This document shows, one piece after another, positions 1 through 60,105 of a stretch of DNA of 64,000 nucleotides. The translations under genes were made by a program, and so were the position numbers. Location of the stretch: contig JABIHH010000046.1 in NCBI GenBank assembly GCA_018649725.1, forward strand, positions 24,508 to 88,507, written 5' to 3'. Position 1 is the first letter of the stretch, and the number at the start of each line of letters is the position of its first letter. This DNA is from Rhodospirillaceae bacterium. GTDB lineage: Bacteria; Pseudomonadota; Alphaproteobacteria; Rhodospirillales; UBA2165. The notes beneath the pieces were generated by a model. That model had not been told where the DNA came from and ran no database searches. It worked only from the letters and a program-made list of their open reading frames with translations.

Positions 1-1064
1 TTTGCGGGTTGATGACCATTCGGGCGGCTTTGGAAGCCAGAGGTGATGGTCGAAAGCGTGTGCTGGTGCCGGAATCGGCTCATGGTACCAATCCGGCCAG
101 TGCCTATATGTGCGGCTATAAGGTTGAAACGATCCCGGCGACCGATCAGGGCCGGGTCGATCTGGCAGCGCTCAAGGCGAAGTTGGACGACGATGTTGCC
201 GCCATCATGGTGACCAATCCCAATACCTGCGGCTTGTTCGAGGACGAGATCATCGAGATGAACCAGGCCGTGCATGAGATCGGCGGCTTGGTCTATTGCG
301 ATGGCGCGAATTTCAACGCGATTGTCGGTAGCGTCCGGCCGGGTGATCTTGGCATTGATGCAATGCATCTCAATTTGCACAAAACCTTCTCAACACCGCA
401 TGGCGGCGGTGGGCCGGGTGCGGGGCCGGTTGTGTTGTCAGAAGCCCTGGCCGCCTTCGCGCCGCTTCCTTTTGTCGTGCATAGCAAGGATGGCTTTGAA
501 TTGATCGAGCAGACAGAGGATGCCGATGGCGCGCAGCCATATGGCCGGATGAAAGGTTTTCACGGCCAGTTCGGCGTTTTTGTCCGGGCGCTTTCTTATA
601 TGCTGAGTATGGGCAGCGATGGCCTGCGCCAAGCGTCAAGCGATGCCGTGCTCAACGCCAATTACCTGATGGCCGAGCTCAGCGATATTTTGACGCCGTC
701 TTACGACGGCCCGTGTATGCATGAAGTCTTGTTTGATGATCGTTTCTTGAAAGACACCGAGGTGACGACCCTCGATTTTGCCAAAGCAATGATCGATGAA
801 GGGTTCCATCCGATGACGATGTATTTCCCGCTGGTGGTTCATGGCGCGCTTCTGATGGAGCCGACCGAGACCGAAAGTAAGGCGACGCTTGATGAGTTTA
901 TTGCGGTGATCCGGAGCCTGGCTGAAAAGGCACAAACCGGCAATGCTGAGATGTTCAAAGAGGCGCCGATCAATACACCACGCCGACGCCTCGATGAAAC
1001 CAAAGCGGCCCGCAATCCGATCCTGACCTGGCATTCGCGAAAATCAAATCGTCCTGAGGGTTAA
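1..1064 (+). CDS. gcvPB: Glycine dehydrogenase (decarboxylating) subunit 2, C-terminal part; 5' end lies outside the window
   Basis: The ORF is open to the window edge. The translation contains ESAHGTNPASA and HLNLHKTFSTPHGGGGPGAGP, the PLP-lysine region typical of GcvPB. Confidence 0.9.
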   Translation, partial: CGLMTIRAALEARGDGRKRVLVPESAHGTNPASAYMCGYKVETIPATDQGRVDLAALKAKLDDDVAAIMVTNPNTCGLFEDEIIEMNQAVHEIGGLVYCDGANFNAIVGSVRPGDLGIDAMHLNLHKTFSTPHGGGGPGAGPVVLSEALAAFAPLPFVVHSKDGFELIEQTEDADGAQPYGRMKGFHGQFGVFVRALSYMLSMGSDGLRQASSDAVLNANYLMAELSDILTPSYDGPCMHEVLFDDRFLKDTEVTTLDFAKAMIDEGFHPMTMYFPLVVHGALLMEPTETESKATLDEFIAVIRSLAEKAQTGNAEMFKEAPINTPRRRLDETKAARNPILTWHSRKSNRPEG

Positions 1065-1075
1065 GTGCCTAGATT

Positions 1076-1363
1076 TTAGGCTTCAAGACTATCGGGCAAA
1101 CCATCTGGTAAATCGGCGGGAGGGTCGTCGGGCAATTCGTCCATCGAATCCTCTGAGATAAACGGCCACAGCATGATCCCCATTTCCGGGCCAAAGGCTT
1201 TAGCCATGAGGAAAGCGGCCTCAGGCGTCATCAGATGTTTGAGATATTGCCGCTCTTCCGGCTGGAGGCGGTTAATGCCATCTCTAAAATTGGGCACAAA
1301 TTTTTTATCGTACTTATAGGTGAGGGGGTTTAACGGGCCTGACTCATTCATTGGGGCGGTCAT
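1076..1363 (-). CDS. Hypothetical 95-aa protein with an acidic Pro/Asp-rich C-terminus
   Basis: The ATG is preceded by AAGGAG with a 6-nt spacer. I recognise no family. It is the last gene of the minus-strand cluster at 1076-5713. Confidence 0.5.
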   Translation of the reverse strand: MTAPMNESGPLNPLTYKYDKKFVPNFRDGINRLQPEERQYLKHLMTPEAAFLMAKAFGPEMGIMLWPFISEDSMDELPDDPPADLPDGLPDSLEA

Positions 1364-1380
1364 TGTGTTCTCCTTGGTTT

Positions 1381-1404
1381 TAAATTTGTGATTATAAATT
1401 TGTG
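1381..1404 (-). promoter_or_regulatory. Direct repeat TAAATTTGTG x2 (14-bp period) containing a minus-strand TATAAT, in an AT-rich spacer just upstream of the 95-aa gene
   Basis: TAAATTTGTG occurs at 1381-1390 and 1395-1404. The reverse complement of 1391-1396 reads TATAAT, about 27 nt upstream of the ATG at 1363. Confidence 0.25.
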
Positions 1405-1481
1405 GTTTAAAAAATTATTTTTGGTTCTAATTTTAGATTTTGAGCACCAACATTGGCTTTTTTATGGTGAATTTTTTTCTC

Positions 1482-2120
1482 CTAATATTTTTGAACCAGT
1501 CCTTCGGGGCACTGTTGTGAATTAGGGATGGGGGAGGGTGGAAGTTGAACGTTTTGGGGCTTCACCCTCCCCCTTTTATCACCGAGGCGGGGATCCCCGA
1601 TGAATTCTGGAAATTTAATGTGTCTGTTATGCTTCTCTCCCAGGGTCGGGCCGACCCAATTGGCCGCAACAGAACTTGGCTTCACCCCGTTTAGCCACTT
1701 TTGCAGCGATAAAAAACTGCCGCCGAGCGGGCTCGATAAGCCGCCATGCAGCACGCCCGGTCTGACCCGAAGCCGCTTGCCATAATCTATGGCTGTCGGG
1801 ATTTCCCAGGGTGTCTGGGTTGGCTTGGCATTCATGCAGCGCGCCATCGGGATCTTGACAATATTGTTGAGTTCCAACTGAACGCCAAAAATCGCCATCT
1901 CATAGCTATCGATATCCGGGTGTGAATGCGGCGGTACAACCACGCTGGGCCCGGCGATAAACAACTGAACCTGATACTCGTTAAATCGAAAAAGTGTCAG
2001 CCCTAAAATACCATCAATATCCATGATCGGCGCTTGGGCCGGAACATTGAAAGATCTGGGTGAACCGCTGGCTAAATACCAATTCACAAATTTATCTAAA
2101 TCATCCATTGCACGCTCCAT
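1482..2120 (-). CDS. Cupin-like protein (212 aa), tightly linked downstream of the Hint-domain protein
   Basis: I chose the start at ATG 2118-2120 (MERAMDD), 5 nt after the upstream stop; the longer ORF-track version to 2414 would overlap that gene. There is a cupin motif-1-like PPHSHPDIDSYEMAIFG and a motif-2-like RPGVLHGG. The C-terminal tail (GRVKPQNVQLPPSPIPN) is translated from a REP-like hairpin. Confidence 0.6.
   Translation of the reverse strand: MERAMDDLDKFVNWYLASGSPRSFNVPAQAPIMDIDGILGLTLFRFNEYQVQLFIAGPSVVVPPHSHPDIDSYEMAIFGVQLELNNIVKIPMARCMNAKPTQTPWEIPTAIDYGKRLRVRPGVLHGGLSSPLGGSFLSLQKWLNGVKPSSVAANWVGPTLGEKHNRHIKFPEFIGDPRLGDKRGRVKPQNVQLPPSPIPNSQQCPEGLVQKY
1530..1573. repeat. GC-rich REP-like hairpin (half element of the CCCTCCCCC family) inside the 3' end of the cupin-like ORF
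   Basis: GGGGGAGGGTGGAAG ... CTTCACCCTCCCCC is an imperfect inverted repeat. Confidence 0.7.
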
Positions 2121-2125
2121 CGTCT

Positions 2126-4405
2126 TTAAGTCCCAGCTCTTTGTTCGCCGGCAACGCCGCCCGGCGTTAACTTGTCGAAGGGGTCTCGTCGGATCAGGAA
2201 GCGAATAATCGGTGTGCCGTAATCCATCGCCAACCGACCCAGAATATGACCTTTGGGTTTGTCGGCATAGCGATGGCCAAGCTCGGTGATCCAGGGGCGG
2301 ATACCGGCCGCAAGCCAGCGGCCAAAGCTCATCGGTGCCCGCCGTGAGAGCGCAATCAGCGGTTTGGCAATCAAACGGTAGGTATGACTGACGCAGTCCG
2401 TATCTTCGGCCCAATCCTCACCAAATCCCCGAAAGGGGTTTTCATAGCGGGAATATTTGCGCTCAATGTCCCACTCTTCATCGGAGAACCAGCCCTGGCG
2501 ATGAAGCTCGGCGCAGATGATGGTCGAGTTGTGAACCCGAAAGCCGCCCGCAACAAAACAATCGCCGCCGGCCACTTCAAGGTTGTAGACGTTGTCTGCC
2601 TCACCATCGCTATAGATTTGGCGGACGATATGGCTCGAACCATCGGCATTGACGAGCTCAATGCCCGGCTCAATTTCACGGGCAAAAATCCATTTGCCAT
2701 TGGCACACAGGAACGGATGCGGCGGGGTGGCCTTCACGCCATCAATATTAATCAGCCGCCGCCGCCCGGAGACAATGTTCTCCAGCACCAGCTCTGATTT
2801 AATCTCACCAAGATTGCTAAAGGAGGCGATCAGATCGCCGGGCTTGATTTCAGCAATTGGCTTTTCCGAACCATCTGCCATCAGGATCGGCGTGTCGCCG
2901 GTAAAGCATTCTGCGCCACCGCCGTCACCGGTTTCAACACCCCAAACGCCATCCGGACTCATACCAGACATAGGTGCACCGGTTGCAGTAGCGGTAAATC
3001 CACTATTCCCGCCCCCTCCTGTTGAACCGCCGGAGCCCATCGTTTCCGCATCATTGCCCATGGCGTCGATCGCACCGCCCATCGTATCCACGGTGCCGTC
3101 TGAATATGCACTTCCCCATTCGCCATCGGAATCAACCCCGTAGCCATAGCCATAATCACCACCAGCATAAGCACCACCGGACATGTCTCCGTTGGAGAAC
3201 ATGCCGCTTGAAAGAGCACTGCCATTGGGACCCGAGGCACCTACACCCCAGCCCCCATTGTAGGTGCCGTCAACAGCATAGCCACTGGCGATGTTACTTT
3301 CTGCACCGAGTAAATTATCGCCAATGTTGGCCGTTTGTTCTCCCAAGGAATTTACTGAATTAGAGGCACCGGCGTTAGCGGGGTCTGTGTCCATCGTGTA
3401 ATTATGAGCCGCCGTGAAAGCATCTACAAAACTCACGGGCTCAACGCCATAATTGGTTTTCTCGCCGCTGGTGTCCGCTTTACCCGCGCTCGGACCAGCG
3501 GTCGTCGGGCTGTTGCCATAGATACTATTGCCCGGATTACCGCTCGTGCTGTGAGCCCCCCGATACGCCGCCCCGATGTCAGTGGTCGCACCCATAACCA
3601 TCGCCGTCGCCCGCTCCGCATGAGCCGCCTGTTCAGCCGGATCTACGGTCAGTGCAGTGTAGGCTGTCTGGTTGCCCGCTTTGGCACCGAGACTAGTGGG
3701 CCCAGTGTTTGTAAAGCCGACCAAGGCGGCATTGGCGACTTCATTGAGCGTATCATTGCCGGTATTGCCCATCAGCGCACCAGGGTCGGTATCTGAGATA
3801 CCTAACGGCGAAGCCGAGTCAGTTGTATCTTCGAGATAGGATTCGCCAAAATAATCATTAATAACGCCGTCTACACCATAGTTTTCTGGAGCCGTGCCAC
3901 CGCCGAGGGGGTCAGTGGGGGCAAATTCGTCATCGGAATAAAACCAAGCTAAGTCTTTGTCACTGATGCCACCCCCAAATGGGTCGGCGTCACGAATCGC
4001 GTTTGCACCTGGATGCGACAATCCCATTTCTTCTGAAATCATATTAGCAGTTTGAGCGGCTGTACGACCAACAGGGTCGGCTGCAATGCCTGCGTAATAG
4101 CCAATACCTTTACCTGCATGTCTACCTAACTGGCTGCCTATGATGGCTCCTTCCTTCCCTAATCTGGAGCCAATTTTTCCTCCGACAATTCCACCGATCC
4201 GGCCTCCTAATTTTGCTCCTTTTTCGTCCAATCCATAATCAGGGGCATTTCCCGGAAGCCCGTTGAACGTAGTAGCGGTATAGGTTTGTGGCTCACCATG
4301 GACATTTCCATTCTGATCAACCGTTGAAACAGATTGTTCCCACATACCGGTATCCTGATTGAAATGAGCGGGGCCATAAGATGTTGAAAACTCGATACTT
4401 GCCAT
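2126..4405 (-). CDS. 759-aa glycine-zipper / low-complexity protein with an internal Hint (pretoxin-HINT / bacterial intein-like) module and an unassigned C-terminal domain; putative self-processing effector or bacteriocin
   Basis: This is a long uninterrupted ORF. GxxxG repeats span aa 66-110. The Hint blocks are CFTGDTPILMADG (Cys500), ATPPHPF (TxxH) and VYNLEVAGGDCFVAGGFRVHN followed by Ser627. The start ATG overlaps the stop of the upstream small gene (TGATG). Confidence 0.8.
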   Translation of the reverse strand: MASIEFSTSYGPAHFNQDTGMWEQSVSTVDQNGNVHGEPQTYTATTFNGLPGNAPDYGLDEKGAKLGGRIGGIVGGKIGSRLGKEGAIIGSQLGRHAGKGIGYYAGIAADPVGRTAAQTANMISEEMGLSHPGANAIRDADPFGGGISDKDLAWFYSDDEFAPTDPLGGGTAPENYGVDGVINDYFGESYLEDTTDSASPLGISDTDPGALMGNTGNDTLNEVANAALVGFTNTGPTSLGAKAGNQTAYTALTVDPAEQAAHAERATAMVMGATTDIGAAYRGAHSTSGNPGNSIYGNSPTTAGPSAGKADTSGEKTNYGVEPVSFVDAFTAAHNYTMDTDPANAGASNSVNSLGEQTANIGDNLLGAESNIASGYAVDGTYNGGWGVGASGPNGSALSSGMFSNGDMSGGAYAGGDYGYGYGVDSDGEWGSAYSDGTVDTMGGAIDAMGNDAETMGSGGSTGGGGNSGFTATATGAPMSGMSPDGVWGVETGDGGGAECFTGDTPILMADGSEKPIAEIKPGDLIASFSNLGEIKSELVLENIVSGRRRLINIDGVKATPPHPFLCANGKWIFAREIEPGIELVNADGSSHIVRQIYSDGEADNVYNLEVAGGDCFVAGGFRVHNSTIICAELHRQGWFSDEEWDIERKYSRYENPFRGFGEDWAEDTDCVSHTYRLIAKPLIALSRRAPMSFGRWLAAGIRPWITELGHRYADKPKGHILGRLAMDYGTPIIRFLIRRDPFDKLTPGGVAGEQRAGT
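2528..2908 (-). other. Hint (Hedgehog/intein) module, 127 aa (aa 500-626), with all canonical catalytic positions present
   Basis: Cys1 is encoded by TGC at 2906-2908. Block B is TPPH and the C-terminal is His-Asn (codons ending at 2528). The +1 residue is Ser. Confidence 0.75.
4076..4210 (-). other. Glycine-zipper segment (aa 66-110) of the 759-aa protein
   Basis: LGGRIGGIVGGKIGSRLGKEGAIIGSQLGRHAGKGIGYYAGIAA shows consecutive GxxxG/GxxxA spacing. Confidence 0.6.
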
Positions 4406-4647
4406 CAGATATTACCTTTTTTGTTGGATTTAAACTTTGAAAATAAAAAATATGAGAAATGTAGGATGAATTCTAATGATAAGAATAAAAATATATAGAC
4501 TACGGATTCTATCATTAGGCTGTAATTTTCTAGAAAAGTGTCTAGATCGAATGAGAAATAAACTATCGAATAAACTAAAAATAAAATTGAATGTTGTTTT
4601 TTTGTTAAAGGCAAAACCCAATTGGGATTTAAATTTGATCTAATCAT
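4405..4647 (-). CDS. Small two-TM protein B (80 aa), paralogue of 4748..4990; candidate immunity or export partner
   Basis: I chose the start at MIRSNL (ATG 4645-4647), which makes it colinear with and the same length as the paralogue. The two share an NP..P N-terminal motif, FD.D, LE and the C-terminal KFKSNK.GNI. The stop TGA overlaps the ATG of the 759-aa gene by 1 nt. The gene is very AT-rich. Confidence 0.6.
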   Translation of the reverse strand: MIRSNLNPNWVLPLTKKQHSILFLVYSIVYFSFDLDTFLENYSLMIESVVYIFLFLSLEFILHFSYFLFSKFKSNKKGNI

Positions 4648-4748
4648 TCTACTTCCAATGCCTCTATTACAGACGGATTTTCCCCACATGCCGGTTTTTG
4701 GTTGAAATGAGCGGGGCCATAAGATGTTGAAAACTCGATACTTGCCAT
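4644..4748 (-). pseudogene. Truncated duplicate of the 5' end of the 759-aa gene (34 codons: MASIEFSTSYGPAHFNQ then divergent and frameshifted)
   Basis: A 47-bp stretch, 4702-4748, is identical to 4359-4405. Flanking similarity extends to about 4663-4780 versus 4320-4437. A 1-nt indel after codon 17 shifts the frame. The fragment's TGA overlaps the ATG of small protein B (ATGA). Confidence 0.7.
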
Positions 4749-4990
4749 TAGATATTGCCTTCTTTGTTGGATTTGAATTTATCCAAAGAAAGGAAAATTA
4801 AATAAATTATTACCTCTAATATCAGTATAGATACTGCAAATATTATAATTGATAATAGTTCATTACTAATGGAAAATAATGAATCAATATCAAATAAGTA
4901 ATAAAGTAATGAATAAAAGATCATTATTGAATAGTATTGTAATCTGCTAATTGGTATATTCAGTTTTGGATTGAATGTTAACCTCACCAT
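4748..4990 (-). CDS. Small two-TM protein A (80 aa), paralogue of 4405..4647
   Basis: MVRLTFNPKLNIPISR...LDKFKSNKEGNI has two hydrophobic stretches. The stop TAA overlaps the ATG of the truncated toxin 5' copy (TAATG). A GAGG lies about 12 nt upstream of the ATG. The gene is very AT-rich. Confidence 0.6.
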   Translation of the reverse strand: MVRLTFNPKLNIPISRLQYYSIMIFYSLLYYLFDIDSLFSISNELLSIIIFAVSILILEVIIYLIFLSLDKFKSNKEGNI

Positions 4991-5086
4991 TTTTAATTCG
5001 CCTCATTTTTATCAATACGCGTTATCTCTTCTATTCTCTATGCCCCTATTAGAGGGCGTTTTTAGTAAAATTGCGCGTTTATTTTT

Positions 5087-5713
5087 TTACTTGTTAGCAT
5101 TCACGTCGTCCGACCAGGTGTTCATGAGGGAGTTGATGCTGTTGATATAGTGCTGTCGGCTTGCCTTCGTGGTGGTTGTGGGTTTGCGGGGTTTGAGCCG
5201 TTTGGCGCGCTGGCGGGAGAGGGGGCCGAGGGTTTCGAGTTGGGCCAAAAGACTATCGGGTGATTCTACTAGGCTTGGGCTTGGGCGGTGGCGGTCTTCG
5301 CTGCGGATCGTGCGCCCTGAGCTATCGACGTTGAGGGGGCCGGGATAGGTGATGGCAAACCACTCGCTGACGGTGTCGCGGACTTTTTCCGAGGCAGGGT
5401 GATACCAGGTGCGATAGGCCTCGCTTTGCATCAAAGTCTCAATCTCGGGTGCCGAGAGCAGCCGGGGAATGAGGGGGATGGCGCGCCCTTCCAAATGAAT
5501 TTCCTGGTCCTCGCTAAATTCAGCCGGGGCAGCCGGGTCAATTTCCGCCTGATGAATGGCGGCCAACAGATCGTGGCCGGTGAGCGCTGGAATATTGGCC
5601 GCCATGTTTGCCGTTTTGTCGGCCGTTTGGCGGGTGAAGCCGTTCTGTTCTCCGCTCTCAGGGGGCTCGTCCACGCCAATTGTCGGTTTATTTTCTGAAT
5701 AATCTTCCACCAC
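5087..5713 (-). CDS. Hypothetical 208-aa protein with an acidic N-terminus and a basic, Thr-rich C-terminus
   Basis: This is a long ORF on the same strand and upstream of the small-TM/Hint cluster. I recognise no family. Confidence 0.5.
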   Translation of the reverse strand: MVEDYSENKPTIGVDEPPESGEQNGFTRQTADKTANMAANIPALTGHDLLAAIHQAEIDPAAPAEFSEDQEIHLEGRAIPLIPRLLSAPEIETLMQSEAYRTWYHPASEKVRDTVSEWFAITYPGPLNVDSSGRTIRSEDRHRPSPSLVESPDSLLAQLETLGPLSRQRAKRLKPRKPTTTTKASRQHYINSINSLMNTWSDDVNANK

Positions 5714-5850
5714 TAAGTGTCCTTATATGTTTTTGTTAACGCATAAGGTAGGGGGGATGTTTCTCATTAGCAAGAACAAATTGTGAACAATTTATTAATA
5801 TTCCTAAAAAGGGTATAATTAATAAGGTGTTAGGTGTTGAAAATTTAGTC

Positions 5851-5953
5851 ACCTCCCACCCCAGCCCTCCCCCTCAAGGGGGGAGGGGGTAAGCTTAAAA
5901 TGAGTGACCCAAACTTCCTCCCCCTTGATGGGGGAGGATTGAGGAGGGGGTGA
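5851..5953. repeat. Composite GC-rich palindromic element (CCCTCCCCC-TCAAGG-GGGGAGGG family), degenerate full-length copy
   Basis: There are two internal hairpins: CCCTCCCCCTCAAGGGGGGAGGG at about 5865-5887 and CCTCCCCCTTGATGGGGGAGG at about 5917-5937. The outer arms resemble those of the element at 59944-60047. Confidence 0.75.
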
Positions 5954-5977
5954 ATTAAAAAAAGAGGAGGTGTGTGT

Positions 5978-7411
5978 TTACTGAATGATCGATTTTAGTT
6001 CAGCGAGGCAGGCGGCGTGGTTGGCCTCACAGCCGCCGTCCAGCCACCAGGCCTCAACCTGCTCAAGCAGGCGGGAGATCTCGGGGCCGGGGTCAATGCC
6101 GAGATCCAGCACATCCTGGCCTTTGAGCGGAAAGGTGGGCTCTTGTCCAATCTGAGCATCGGCGATCTCGACGAGATGAAGCCAGCGGTTTTTTTCTTCA
6201 GCGAGCGTGTCGATTGCGTCGACCTGCATTGCCGCCCAATTGAGCAAGATAAGATCAATCACCGTGGTCGCCCCATGCGTATAAAGCGCTGCCTGGACAT
6301 CTTCGTCGCTCATATCCCAGCGAATATCTACTGTCGGCGCGACCATGGCAGTGAGACGTTTCTGTTCGGCTTTGGACAGGCGCAGGGCAGCGGCAATCTC
6401 CAGGACGCCGCTTTCATCGGTGTCGACGAGGGCAGCCAGCCGCCGTAACGGGTCAGGCTTGACGCTGGCAAAATTCATCGCCCTGGTCTCCAACCAATGG
6501 ACCTGACGCAGTTTATCCGGCGAGATGACATAAGGGAGGATGATCTGCAACACGCCCTGTTGATACATCAACGACATGATATCGAGCAGCATATTTGAGC
6601 TCAAAATTTTGAACAGCTCGGCCCGAATGCGCTCAGCCGAAAGCTCTCTCAGCAAGCCGGCCTGATCAATGCAGGCTTGGAACTCCCGCTTGCTCTCAAC
6701 CCGCATGCCCAAGGTCGCGATAAAGCGGAAATAGCGTAAAATACGTAGATGGTCTTCCTCAATCCGCTCAGGCGCTCGGCCGACAAAGCGGATCACCCGA
6801 TTGGCGAGATCTTGAATGCCATTGAAATAGTCATAGACCATGCCGTCCGGTGTCGCGCTCAGTGTGTTGAAAGTGAAATCACGCCGGGCGGCATCTTGTT
6901 TCCAATCTAGCGTGAACTCGACCACCGCATGGCGACCATCGGTTTTGATGTCTTTTCGAAGGGTGGTGATCTCAAAGCTCTGGCCGTTGATTACCGCCAT
7001 CACTGTGCCGTGCTCGATGCCGGTCGGCACGGCTTTGATGCCAGCTTCTTCTAATAGCCGGACAACTTGATCCGGCGTCTCCTGGGTTGCAAGATCGATA
7101 TCGGTATTTGGTTTTCTAAGCATGGCGTCGCGGACACAGCCGCCGATAAAGCGGGCTTCTTTGCCGTTTTTGGTGATAGCAGCAAGAACCGCTGTTACTT
7201 CCGGGCTTTCCATCCAGGGCTCAACCGGGATTTGCCCGCCGGGCCGTCCGTCCCAATTCACGATGATATCACCAGGCTTGATGGCCGGCTCAAACAGCTT
7301 GCGGCGTGACGATTTGCGGCGCGCGACGAGCAACAAAAAAACTATCAGGGCCAGGGTCGTCACCGTCCAACGCACCGGACCTTCGATATAATTGAGTATC
7401 TCTTCAATCAT
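5978..7411 (-). CDS. cca: tRNA nucleotidyltransferase (CCA-adding) / poly(A) polymerase family; the longest ORF includes a 66-aa N-terminal extension with a hydrophobic helix
   Basis: The FIGGCVRDAMLRKPNTDIDLAT nucleotidyltransferase motif is present. A canonical-length product would start at Met67 (MESPEV, nt 7213). Confidence 0.8.
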   Translation of the reverse strand: MIEEILNYIEGPVRWTVTTLALIVFLLLVARRKSSRRKLFEPAIKPGDIIVNWDGRPGGQIPVEPWMESPEVTAVLAAITKNGKEARFIGGCVRDAMLRKPNTDIDLATQETPDQVVRLLEEAGIKAVPTGIEHGTVMAVINGQSFEITTLRKDIKTDGRHAVVEFTLDWKQDAARRDFTFNTLSATPDGMVYDYFNGIQDLANRVIRFVGRAPERIEEDHLRILRYFRFIATLGMRVESKREFQACIDQAGLLRELSAERIRAELFKILSSNMLLDIMSLMYQQGVLQIILPYVISPDKLRQVHWLETRAMNFASVKPDPLRRLAALVDTDESGVLEIAAALRLSKAEQKRLTAMVAPTVDIRWDMSDEDVQAALYTHGATTVIDLILLNWAAMQVDAIDTLAEEKNRWLHLVEIADAQIGQEPTFPLKGQDVLDLGIDPGPEISRLLEQVEAWWLDGGCEANHAACLAELKSIIQ

Positions 7412-8996: not shown

Positions 8997-10019
8997 TTGT
9001 CTGATGCCGCTGAACCATCCGTAACTCCCAATCAAACTGATAATAGTGATGTTGTGGGTGAACTTGAAGACATTAGCAAAAAAATTGTTGAGGTGCGTAG
9101 CGCCATTGGCCGAATTATTTTTGGCCAACAATCGGTTGTTGAAGAGACGCTGGTTACTTTATTGGCCGGCGGCCATGTGCTGCTGATCGGCGTTCCAGGT
9201 CTGGGTAAGACGCGCTTGGTGGAAACGCTTGGCACTGTCTTAGGGTTGGATGAGCGCCGCGTTCAGTTTACGCCGGATTTGATGCCGGCTGATATTTTAG
9301 GCTCTGAGGTTTTAGAGGAAGGCGAAGGCGGCAAGCGCGCTTTCCGGTTTATTCAAGGCCCCGTTTTTTGCCAGCTTTTGATGGCCGATGAGATCAACCG
9401 GGCAAGCCCGCGTACTCAGTCTGCTCTTTTGCAGGCGATGCAGGAGCGCCGGGTTTCGGTTGCCGGTCACTATCATGATCTGCCGGCCCCGTTCCATGTC
9501 TTGGCGACGCAGAACCCGCTTGAGCAAGAAGGCACTTATCCATTGCCCGAAGCCCAGCTTGATCGCTTTTTGATGCAGGTAAACATCGACTATCCGCAAT
9601 TGGCCGCCGAGCGGGAGATCCTGACCGCAACGACGGGCTCGGAAGAAGCAACGCCTCAGCAAGTGATGAGTGCTGATGAATTACAAAACGCGCAGCGAGT
9701 CGTCCGCCATGTGCCGGTTGGCGATAGTGTGATGGCGGCGATATTGGAGCTGGTGCGTTCCGGCCGTCCAAACTCGTCGGATATTCCCGAAGTGATTGAA
9801 CACGTGGCTTGGGGACCAGGCCCGCGTGCCAGTCAGGCCTTGATGCTGGCGGTACGTGCACGGGCAGTCATCGGTGGGCGCTTGGCACCCTCGATTGACG
9901 ATGTGCTCGCTTTGGCCCAGCCTGTCTTGCGGCATCGCATGGCGCTCAATTTTGCCGCCCGTGCCGAAGGTGTCACTTTAGAAAAAATCATTGATAAACT
10001 GGCCAGTCGGATTGGATGA
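8997..10019 (+). CDS. MoxR-family AAA+ ATPase
   Basis: The Walker A motif is GVPGLGKT and the Walker B is LLMADEINRASPRTQSALLQAM. Confidence 0.9.
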   Translation: MSDAAEPSVTPNQTDNSDVVGELEDISKKIVEVRSAIGRIIFGQQSVVEETLVTLLAGGHVLLIGVPGLGKTRLVETLGTVLGLDERRVQFTPDLMPADILGSEVLEEGEGGKRAFRFIQGPVFCQLLMADEINRASPRTQSALLQAMQERRVSVAGHYHDLPAPFHVLATQNPLEQEGTYPLPEAQLDRFLMQVNIDYPQLAAEREILTATTGSEEATPQQVMSADELQNAQRVVRHVPVGDSVMAAILELVRSGRPNSSDIPEVIEHVAWGPGPRASQALMLAVRARAVIGGRLAPSIDDVLALAQPVLRHRMALNFAARAEGVTLEKIIDKLASRIG

Positions 10020-59901: not shown

Positions 59902-59943
59902 GTTAAGTCCTTTTGTTGTTTGCCGATTGGGGCATTTACAAGT

Positions 59944-60047
59944 CCCCCCACCCCAACCCTCCCCCTCAAGGAGGGAGGGGGTTATTGTTGCACGGTATTT
60001 AATCCACTTCTCCCTCCCTCCTTGAGGGGGAGGGTTGGGGTGGGGGG
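59944..60047. repeat. 104-bp composite palindromic element: perfect 36-bp inverted repeats, each with its own internal hairpin, around a 32-bp AT-richer spacer
   Basis: 59944-59979 (CCCCCCACCCCAACCCTCCCCCTCAAGGAGGGAGGG) is the exact reverse complement of 60012-60047. Confidence 0.9.
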
Positions 60048-60105
60048 TATCGGGATTATAAGCAATATGCGCTCGGTAAAAAAGCACCAGATATTGAAGC
60101 CAGGA

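Follow-up and report, generated by a model that had tools for sequence, protein, structure and literature searches.

Duplicated gene junction and two predicted small membrane proteins upstream of a putative glycine-zipper protein in marine Rhodospirillaceae

Small or polytopic inner-membrane proteins encoded beside proteins with extended GxxxG repeats have been described as protective partners. CdzI of Caulobacter, a small immunity protein with three transmembrane (TM) segments, acts against the glycine-zipper proteins CdzC/D (PMC5380434), and the membrane proteins ExiC and ExiD of S. aureus are jointly required against EsxX, a glycine-zipper toxin (PMC12744356). In the case of MccL, the immunity gene, coding for 51 aa with two TM segments, lies upstream of the structural gene (PMC6795089), and the N-terminal glycine zipper of Tde1, an Agrobacterium effector that belongs to a type VI secretion system (T6SS), permeabilises membranes (PMC10240207). 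The locus reported here lies in a 64,000-nucleotide stretch of contig JABIHH010000046.1 (the window), from the metagenome-assembled genome (MAG) of a marine Rhodospirillaceae bacterium. It holds two paralogous genes of 80 codons, A and B, upstream of a gene for a 759-aa protein (the big gene); each small gene is followed by a copy of the start of the big gene, the copy behind A being cut down to a stub of 34 codons. The explanation that best covers these observations is a joint one, and it is held with about even confidence: a gene-order rearrangement left the duplicated junction as its scar, the four frames form one translationally coupled chain, and the small proteins are membrane partners, probably protective, of the glycine-zipper N-terminal domain (N-domain) of the big protein.

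Like CdzI and ExiC/ExiD, A and B appear to be orphan small inner-membrane proteins beside an extended-GxxxG protein. ExiC and ExiD resemble the pair further in being two different membrane proteins that act together, and CdzI in being without sequence homologues. A and B nevertheless share no sequence similarity with CdzI or ExiC/ExiD, B is inactivated in part of the population, and protection is only a proposed role in the window. The Cdz and EsxX toxins are exported by an adjoining type I (T1SS) or type VII (T7SS) secretion system, neither of which was seen at the window locus, and the zipper of EsxX belongs to the C-terminal toxin domain, whereas that of the window is found in the N-terminal part of the 759-aa protein. 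The likeness to MccL consists of a tiny two-TM gene placed just upstream of the gene that it presumably guards, so that the small protein is made first. Microcins are smaller than 10 kDa, carry double-glycine leaders and have dedicated ATP-binding cassette (ABC) exporters adjacent to them. In contrast to the class II microcins, the partner in the window is a leaderless protein of 759 aa, with no exporter within about 10 kb. Tde1 is likewise alphaproteobacterial, with consecutive GxxxG motifs near the N-terminus and a separate C-terminal domain, but it is loaded onto the T6SS via the adaptor Tap1 and carries a DNase domain, none of which was detectable in the window.

By alignment, the two junction copies (Table 1) correspond over about 111 nt, with 13 mismatches and one 1-nt indel. 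An 82-nt repeat at 93% identity was also recorded, as was an exact repeat of 47 nt, for which 100 shuffles gave no match. The differences were found to be unevenly spread, with five mismatches in the 32 nt of the small-gene tails, none in the 47-nt core, and eight mismatches together with a deletion of 1 nt in the final 32 nt; a perfect run of 47 nt is improbable if 14 differences are scattered randomly over 111 nt (P = 0.0035). Taking the sister species described below as outgroup, most of the differences between the copies are derived on the distal one. The repeat begins in the tail of the small gene and stops at about codon 26–27 of the big gene, beyond which only the proximal copy keeps matching the sister species. 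Codons 1–17 of the stub are identical to those of the big gene, after which the 1-nt deletion changes the frame. Successive frames overlap at stop and start, as TAATG between A and the stub, ATGA between the stub and B, and TGATG between B and the big gene. A minus-strand open reading frame (ORF) of 94 aa (4405–4689), made up of MWGKSVCNRGIGSR followed by B, continues the unshifted frame of the stub into B; it is thus the 1-nt deletion that parts the stub from B and gives rise to the ATGA overlap. For the stub, programmed frameshifting was dropped as a candidate, CCAAAAACC being judged no recognisable slippery heptamer. RNA folding at both junctions was no better than in shuffled sequences (z = +0.5 to +0.9), and RNA structure was accordingly rejected as the reason for the conserved core.

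The repeat is genuine and no assembly artefact, because 14 independent contigs, obtained from different samples with different assemblers (megahit, SPAdes, JGI) and at least 99.86% identical, have A, the stub, B and the two junction copies without exception. Logan contigs terminate inside the 47-nt core; since Logan assembly uses a k of about 31, such breaks are expected for a true repeat in a short-k-mer assembly. The same arrangement was read at all ten places found for the window population (22 contigs). A and the stub are intact in all 14 contigs. In one natural variant (L041), 4 of 1819 positions depart from the window sequence, three of which are diagnostic sites of the A–stub copy bearing the paralogous base, while the diagnostic sites flanking 4749–4762 are unaltered. 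This corresponds to a gene-conversion tract of 14–73 nt (chance alternative about 4e-8) and shows gene conversion to be still at work between the junction copies in the natural population, which would explain the perfect 47-nt core. Another contig, L040 (502 nt, equivalent to window 4759–5260), comes from another sample set and has one difference (5063) as far as codon 67 of A, past which it continues with 31 nt of unrelated sequence (tail GATGATATTAATTACTTACTAGTAGTCTGTAG), A then being 73 aa long. It departs from the window 10 nt upstream of the left edge of the repeat (last common base 4791; edge 4780) and may represent either a further structural variant or the chimeric end of a contig. P0008 (739 aa) was rejected as a variant of the big protein, being merely the product of a contig that begins inside the repeat.

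The history of the junction was approached through a sister species (contig L031), whose CCA-adding enzyme is 70% identical and whose small genes occupy the syntenic position, followed directly by the big-gene orthologue of 826 aa. The order there is r1 (B-type), r2 (A-type) and the big gene, with one junction and no stub, against A-type, stub, B-type and big gene in the window. The grouping (A,r2)(B,r1) received a four-point bootstrap of 0.99; LPLTKKQH is common to B and r1, and MV.L and IIFA.S are common to A and r2. The tail of B (KFKSNKKGNI) resembles that of A and differs from that of r1 (NLIKYKKSI); B is a chimera of a B-type body with a tail of the A type. Sequence comparison thus shows that each species keeps one A-type and one B-type gene directly upstream of the orthologous big gene, both paralogue types having been retained since the species split. 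The duplicated junction is best read as the scar of a gene-order rearrangement. An A-type gene would formerly have abutted the big gene. Either a duplication combined with a deletion or a template switch, its breakpoints lying in the conserved small-gene tail and at about codon 27 of the big gene, would then have put the B-type body between these two. The earlier A–big junction would survive as the 34-codon stub, a remnant suggested by the permuted gene order together with the A-type tail of B, and gene conversion would maintain the identity of the 47-nt core.

That A and B are real genes is shown by their sequence conservation. The two proteins align colinearly without gaps over 80 aa (31% identity, E = 2e-15), A being 42% identical to its orthologue r2 and B 45% to its orthologue r1. 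Nucleotide identity across the four small genes is highest at codon position 2 (0.63–0.81), followed by position 1 (0.47–0.62) and position 3 (0.32–0.47), with zero indels across 68 codons, and the remaining two frames are stop-rich. In all four proteins the N-terminus is basic (+3 to +4) and the first hydrophobic helix is followed by an acidic loop (−3); the second hydrophobic helix, which holds an invariant glutamate, leads into a basic tail (+1 to +4). Under the positive-inside rule, an established regularity of membrane proteins, this charge pattern predicts an inner-membrane hairpin of about 80 aa with both termini inside (N-in/C-in). AlphaFold2 (AF2) likewise modelled A as a helical hairpin (helices 16–32 and 44–78), with a predicted local distance difference test score (pLDDT) of 68.6. 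The small proteins diverge fast, with 44–47% identity between the species, compared with 70% for the CCA-adding enzyme and 89% for GcvPB.

Searched exhaustively with HMMER, 1.84 billion representative proteins yielded as real hits to the A/B profile only P0014 (A itself), P0031 (78 aa) and P0032, the last two both from one sister species. A word-index search for the small proteins returned no further relatives, and none was found on viral contigs scanned with the small-protein alignment. P0033 (1479 aa, with 28 matched stretches) was judged to be a repetitive low-complexity protein and not a homologue. The family is thus shown, across the data searched, to be confined to the marine Rhodospirillaceae population of the window and one sister species. 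Pfam, PHROGs, NCBIfam and PADLOC gave no significant match for either small protein, the stub, the neighbours of 208 aa and 210 aa, the 95-aa gene or the C-terminal domain (C-domain) of the big protein.

The small genes also stand apart in base composition. The interval 4400–5000 has 22–32% G+C, compared with 50–63% in the flanks, and the small-gene region is the sole stretch below 33% within the 64 kb. Third-position G+C in the small genes is 0.25–0.28 in both species, compared with 0.53–0.68 in neighbouring genes, and their codon adaptation index is lower than that of all 25 reference ORFs. This low G+C appears to be maintained rather than to be the residue of a recent transfer, since third positions of the small genes are saturated between the window species and the sister species. 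Third-position G+C is low (0.36) in the opening 130 codons of the big gene as well. What a preliminary description of this DNA had read from the sequence held up in this analysis. The coordinates and overlaps of A, the stub, B and the big gene, the 47-bp identity, the colinear 80-aa paralogues, their two-helix membrane character (hydropathy, charge pattern and AF2 hairpin) and the AT-rich stretch were all recovered. The small ORFs proved conserved as coding sequences, with their frame preserved in the sister species, the suspicion of an assembly artefact was dispelled by the 14 contigs, and the suggested comparison of copy number gave exactly one A-type and one B-type gene in each species. The extended repeat with its 1-nt indel stood as well, with limits slightly shorter than the 4320–4437 and 4663–4780 first drawn, as the alignment begins at 4327 and 4671.

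The big protein, which the small genes precede, comprises a conserved N-terminus, a double glycine zipper, a low-complexity linker, a Hint domain and a helical C-domain. The GxxxG registers 63–79 and 86–102 are retained in the sister species, and Pfam Gly-zipper_YMGG matched with E = 0.0034, below the gathering score. Sequence prediction gave neither a signal peptide nor a classical TM segment, and a trafficking domain sought in residues 1–140 gave no match in Pfam, NCBIfam or PADLOC beyond sub-threshold glycine-zipper hits. On metagenome contigs, the N-domain alignment recovered only two loci, both already known. A word-index search with the first 65 residues gave no candidates, an uninformative outcome in that it missed even the cluster of its own query. 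No relatives were found for the C-domain by tblastn in phages and plasmids, for the N-domain by tblastn in plasmids, or on genome contigs scanned with the big-protein alignment. The C-domain is homologous in all five relatives and could be placed in no family or fold, and its AF2 model was unusable (pLDDT 47.7). The big gene is a resident of long standing at the cca–gcvP locus, in at least four species. L029 (11650–13290) represents a third related species, in which a homologue without the N-domain, split across several frames, directly follows the CCA-enzyme gene, and small genes are absent; this homologue may be a pseudogene or reflect frameshift errors in the MAG.

The Hint domain scored above the cut-offs of PF07591 (30.4 bits; cut-off 27.7) and PF14623 (37.6 bits; cut-off 27) over residues 500–629, and likewise in the sister species, the families matched above cut-off being Pfam Vint and PT-HINT. 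Inteins are recognised by Cys1, a block B TxxH motif, a C-terminal His-Asn and a nucleophile at +1. The window Hint reads ...GGGAE|CFTGDT...ATPPHPF...FRVHN|STIICAEL, with Cys1, TPPH, VHN and Ser+1, and it is inserted precisely ahead of S-[VI]-I-C-[TA]-E-L, the most conserved motif of the C-domain. The insertion occurs in the window species and in L031 and L029; P0002 and P0003 lack it and read straight through (...SDD-SVICTEL... and ...AGGE-SVICTEL..., respectively). The uninterrupted homologues and the four hallmarks point to a mini-intein or bacterial intein-like (BIL) insertion rather than a module that separates variable toxins. The closest solved chain was 2lwy, a bacterial intein-like domain, with a weak match (E = 0.003), and searches of PDB sequences gave nothing apart from weak intein/BIL matches. 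Compared with such elements, the likeness lies in the hallmarks and in the position at the most conserved host motif; splicing by the window Hint is putative, with scores too low to tell an intein from a BIL domain.

With the toxin systems of contact-dependent growth inhibition (CDI), Rhs and PT-HINT type, the locus has in common this Hint match above the PT-HINT and Vint cut-offs and a partial copy of the big gene, apparently left by recombination at a conserved junction. The leftover, however, is a 5' end and not a 3' toxin tip with its immunity gene; no orphan 3' toxin/immunity modules were found downstream, the only partial copy being the 5' stub. The big protein lacks RHS, FHA or other trafficking domains, its C-domain is conserved (68–77%) instead of variable, and its Hint is an insertion missing from two homologues. 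Beyond the Hint match, the features that mark polymorphic toxins are absent, and the polymorphic-toxin reading is weak because the C-domain is conserved and the variable part is the central linker (24–32%).

The four frames would form one translationally coupled chain, through which the membrane proteins are made ahead of the big protein, with the stub as a short relay ORF that hands ribosomes from A to B. No minus-strand terminator-like site was found in 900–6100, and this, together with the unstructured junction RNA, makes sequential coupled translation plausible. The small proteins would be membrane partners of the glycine-zipper N-domain, most likely shielding the inner membrane of the producer from this domain or handling its insertion. 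Small genes were found in both of the lineages with the MASIE.../glycine-zipper N-domain and in none of the three without it, a count that covers five lineages only; the relatives without small genes are L005/P0003, whose N-domain is of another kind, L029, which has none, and L001/P0002, at another place in the genome. This co-occurrence suggests that the small proteins are N-domain membrane partners, possibly immunity-like. In common with known membrane immunity proteins, each is a predicted small integral membrane protein whose gene adjoins that of its putative partner, co-expression being indicated by the overlaps.

Besides the small number of lineages, several findings weigh against this proposal. 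A premature stop in B (Q18*) occurs in 4 of the 14 contigs, and in L007 it stands beside an intact big gene, so that B is dispensable in at least some cells; this argues against B as an indispensable immunity protein. In L013, by comparison, which also carries Q18*, the big gene stops early at codon 454 (window 3046), ahead of the Hint and C-domains, and B and the big gene may have been co-inactivated. The glycine-zipper matches are under the family thresholds, and the zipper helices are rich in Lys and Arg. No secretion system was found within about 10 kb; a dedicated exporter (ABC/membrane fusion protein, T1SS or T7SS) was absent among the called genes 6–10 kb on either side in both species, the neighbours being housekeeping genes. 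At the junction (..KGNT-LNGK..), the r2 gene (L031 10001–10297) does not stop and runs on for 53 nt within the big gene, in another frame, so that the exact coupling geometry is not conserved. The ATGA overlap between the stub and B could have arisen by chance (rough estimate 1 in 8), and two species are insufficient to recover the direction, number or order of the rearrangement steps.

Among the other explanations, the big protein could be the centre of a non-toxic envelope complex to which the small proteins contribute as structural or assembly parts, for instance as an anchor in the membrane or a platform for insertion, with neither antagonism nor immunity involved. The long residence of the big gene at its locus, its conserved and non-polymorphic C-domain, the missing hallmarks of secretion or immunity and the tolerated loss of B would all fit such a role. 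It was judged unlikely in view of the fast evolution of the small proteins, of a big protein without a predicted TM segment or signal peptide by which to reach the envelope, and of the lack of positive evidence for a complex. A holin-like function was also considered, in which lesions or channels made by A and B in the membrane allow the leaderless big protein out of the cytoplasm. Class II holins are small proteins with two helices, an N-in/C-in topology and a charged basic C-terminal tail, all of which agree with A and B, and the small genes precede and overlap the gene of the putative cargo, which has no signal peptide. This function was given only a small chance of being correct, as neither a PHROG, Pfam or NCBIfam holin match nor a muramidase family match was obtained, the dual-start motif is absent, and no endolysin-like domain or phage context was found, the scans of viral contigs (small proteins), phages and plasmids (C-domain) and plasmids (N-domain) being empty. 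The small genes, moreover, associate with the N-domain and not with the big protein as a whole. That the ORFs are chance frames in an AT-rich regulatory spacer, or the repeat an artefact, was regarded as hardly credible at all. The G+C of A and B is similarly low at all three codon positions (0.21–0.26), the NCBI annotation calls no gene here, and shuffled AT-rich sequence gives at least one 80-codon frame with a probability of 0.125 and at least two with 0.009; nevertheless, the codon-position pattern without indels, and the start, length and topology kept across two species, contradict chance frames, and the concurring 14 assemblies contradict an artefact.

The preliminary description had also seen the junction as a recombination substrate by which small-gene cassettes are added or swapped, and had called the big gene toxin-like. 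The first claim stood in so far as the junction is recombinationally active, as seen in the L041 conversion and the permuted order; repeated adding or swapping did not, since all contigs have one arrangement. In its full form, this idea would make the tail-plus-start junction a dedicated site at which small genes are repeatedly added, displaced or swapped, the 5'-end counterpart of the CDI/Rhs orphan 3' modules, diversifying immunity or export factors. The conversion variant, the chimeric tail of B, the cassette order that differs between species and the divergence of L040 near the repeat edge, through which another arrangement may exist, are in its favour. An active system of this kind was nonetheless judged improbable: just two cassette types occur in all public data searched, with one of each per species, a single arrangement is present at all ten population places, neither stub arrays nor recombinase or mobile-element genes were found nearby, and the sole exchange seen was short-tract homogenisation rather than cassette replacement. 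Highly improbable is the further-reaching view that the tail-plus-start module is a functional unit that re-pairs small membrane-protein cassettes with an N-terminal glycine-zipper delivery domain, a delivery-domain counterpart at the 5' end of the 3' orphan-module logic of CDI/Rhs, with the open, conversion-homogenised stub serving as an obligatory relay ORF or a functional 34-aa peptide. The second claim is weak, as the toxin-like label depends on a Hint match alone, in a domain that is inserted and stands beside a C-domain that is not polymorphic. The combination of a rearrangement scar, a coupled chain and membrane partners of the N-domain remains the best joint explanation of the locus.

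The whole block is flanked by the CCA-adding enzyme gene and gcvPB (coordinates in Table 1). The NCBI annotation of the source MAG has no gene at 4405–4990, the flanking proteins MBT3990442 and MBT3990443 being numbered consecutively. The upstream 208-aa gene is 46% identical to its homologue in L031. The leader motif starts just past the stop of this gene; its plus strand scores as a terminator-like hairpin, and its coding strand has no significant structure. In L031, an additional ORF of 100 aa without a window counterpart lies between a 193-aa gene and the small genes (9335–9637). It combines an N-terminal zinc ribbon (Pfam Zn_Ribbon_1, E = 4e-5) with hydrophobic segments and was rejected as a third paralogue (hhalign probability 1.3%). 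Long GC-rich palindromes resembling repetitive extragenic palindromic (REP) elements, of the type CCCTCCCCCTCAAGGGGGGAGGGGG, occur at 5835–5970 (−69 kcal/mol, z = −5.5), 59930–60060 (−94 kcal/mol) and about 1520–1575. Two of them bracket the block from the upstream 208-aa gene through the downstream 208-aa gene, and similar motifs occur past the big gene in L031 (12791–12858). Rfam matches on 4000–6000 were only of the miRNA-precursor type and were dismissed as spurious, caused by the long palindrome.

Table 1. Features of the locus in window coordinates; identities of big-protein segments are to the sister species.
Feature	Position	Strand	Details
Upstream 208-aa gene	5087..5713	minus	ORF; same strand as A; no terminator-like site before A
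Leader motif, 44 nt	5020..5063	minus	between upstream 208-aa gene and A; 84% identical to L031 9279–9321
Small gene A (A-type, 80 aa)	4748..4990	minus	ORF
Distal junction copy	4671..4780	minus	last 10 codons of A, TAATG, about 26 codons' worth of stub
Diagnostic sites 4762, 4757 and 4749, switched in L041	4749..4762	minus	conversion to B–big state
47-nt perfect core, distal	4702..4748	minus	exact repeat
Stub, 34 codons	4644..4748	minus	ORF; cut-down 5' copy of big gene
Small gene B (80 aa; B-type body, A-type tail)	4405..4647	minus	ORF
Q18* nonsense polymorphism in B (CAA to TAA)	4596..4596	minus	4/14 contigs: L007, L013, L014, L019, different samples
Proximal junction copy	4327..4437	minus	last 10 codons of B, TGATG, first ~26 codons of big gene
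47-nt perfect core, proximal	4359..4405	minus	exact repeat
Big gene, 759 aa	2126..4405	minus	ORF
Conserved N-terminus, residues 1–57			74% identity
Double glycine zipper, residues 62–106	4088..4222	minus	52% identity (measured over 58–130)
G/A/T/S/D-rich low-complexity linker, residues 131–499			24–32% identity
Hint domain, 127 aa, residues 500–626	2528..2908	minus	72% identity
Helical C-domain, 133 aa, residues 627–759	2129..2527	minus	68–77% identity
Downstream gene, about 208 aa	2114-1482	minus	ORF
95-aa gene	1363-1076	minus	ORF

The small-protein family is new and very narrowly distributed, and its arrangement resembles known operons of a small immunity protein and a large effector, the 5' stub being unusual among them. 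If the functional reading is true, the locus would add an unannotated family of tiny membrane proteins, overlooked by the NCBI pipeline and paired with a glycine-zipper N-domain, in abundant uncultured marine alphaproteobacteria; if it fails, the locus would be an ordinary rearrangement scar in a fast-evolving island. The segregating nonsense allele of B, the truncated allele of the big gene and the conversion variant constitute a natural system for studying the partners of glycine-zipper segments. The junction would likewise offer a clear example of how a short conserved gene tail plus start mediates the reordering of neighbouring genes, leaving behind a 5' stub that is maintained by conversion.

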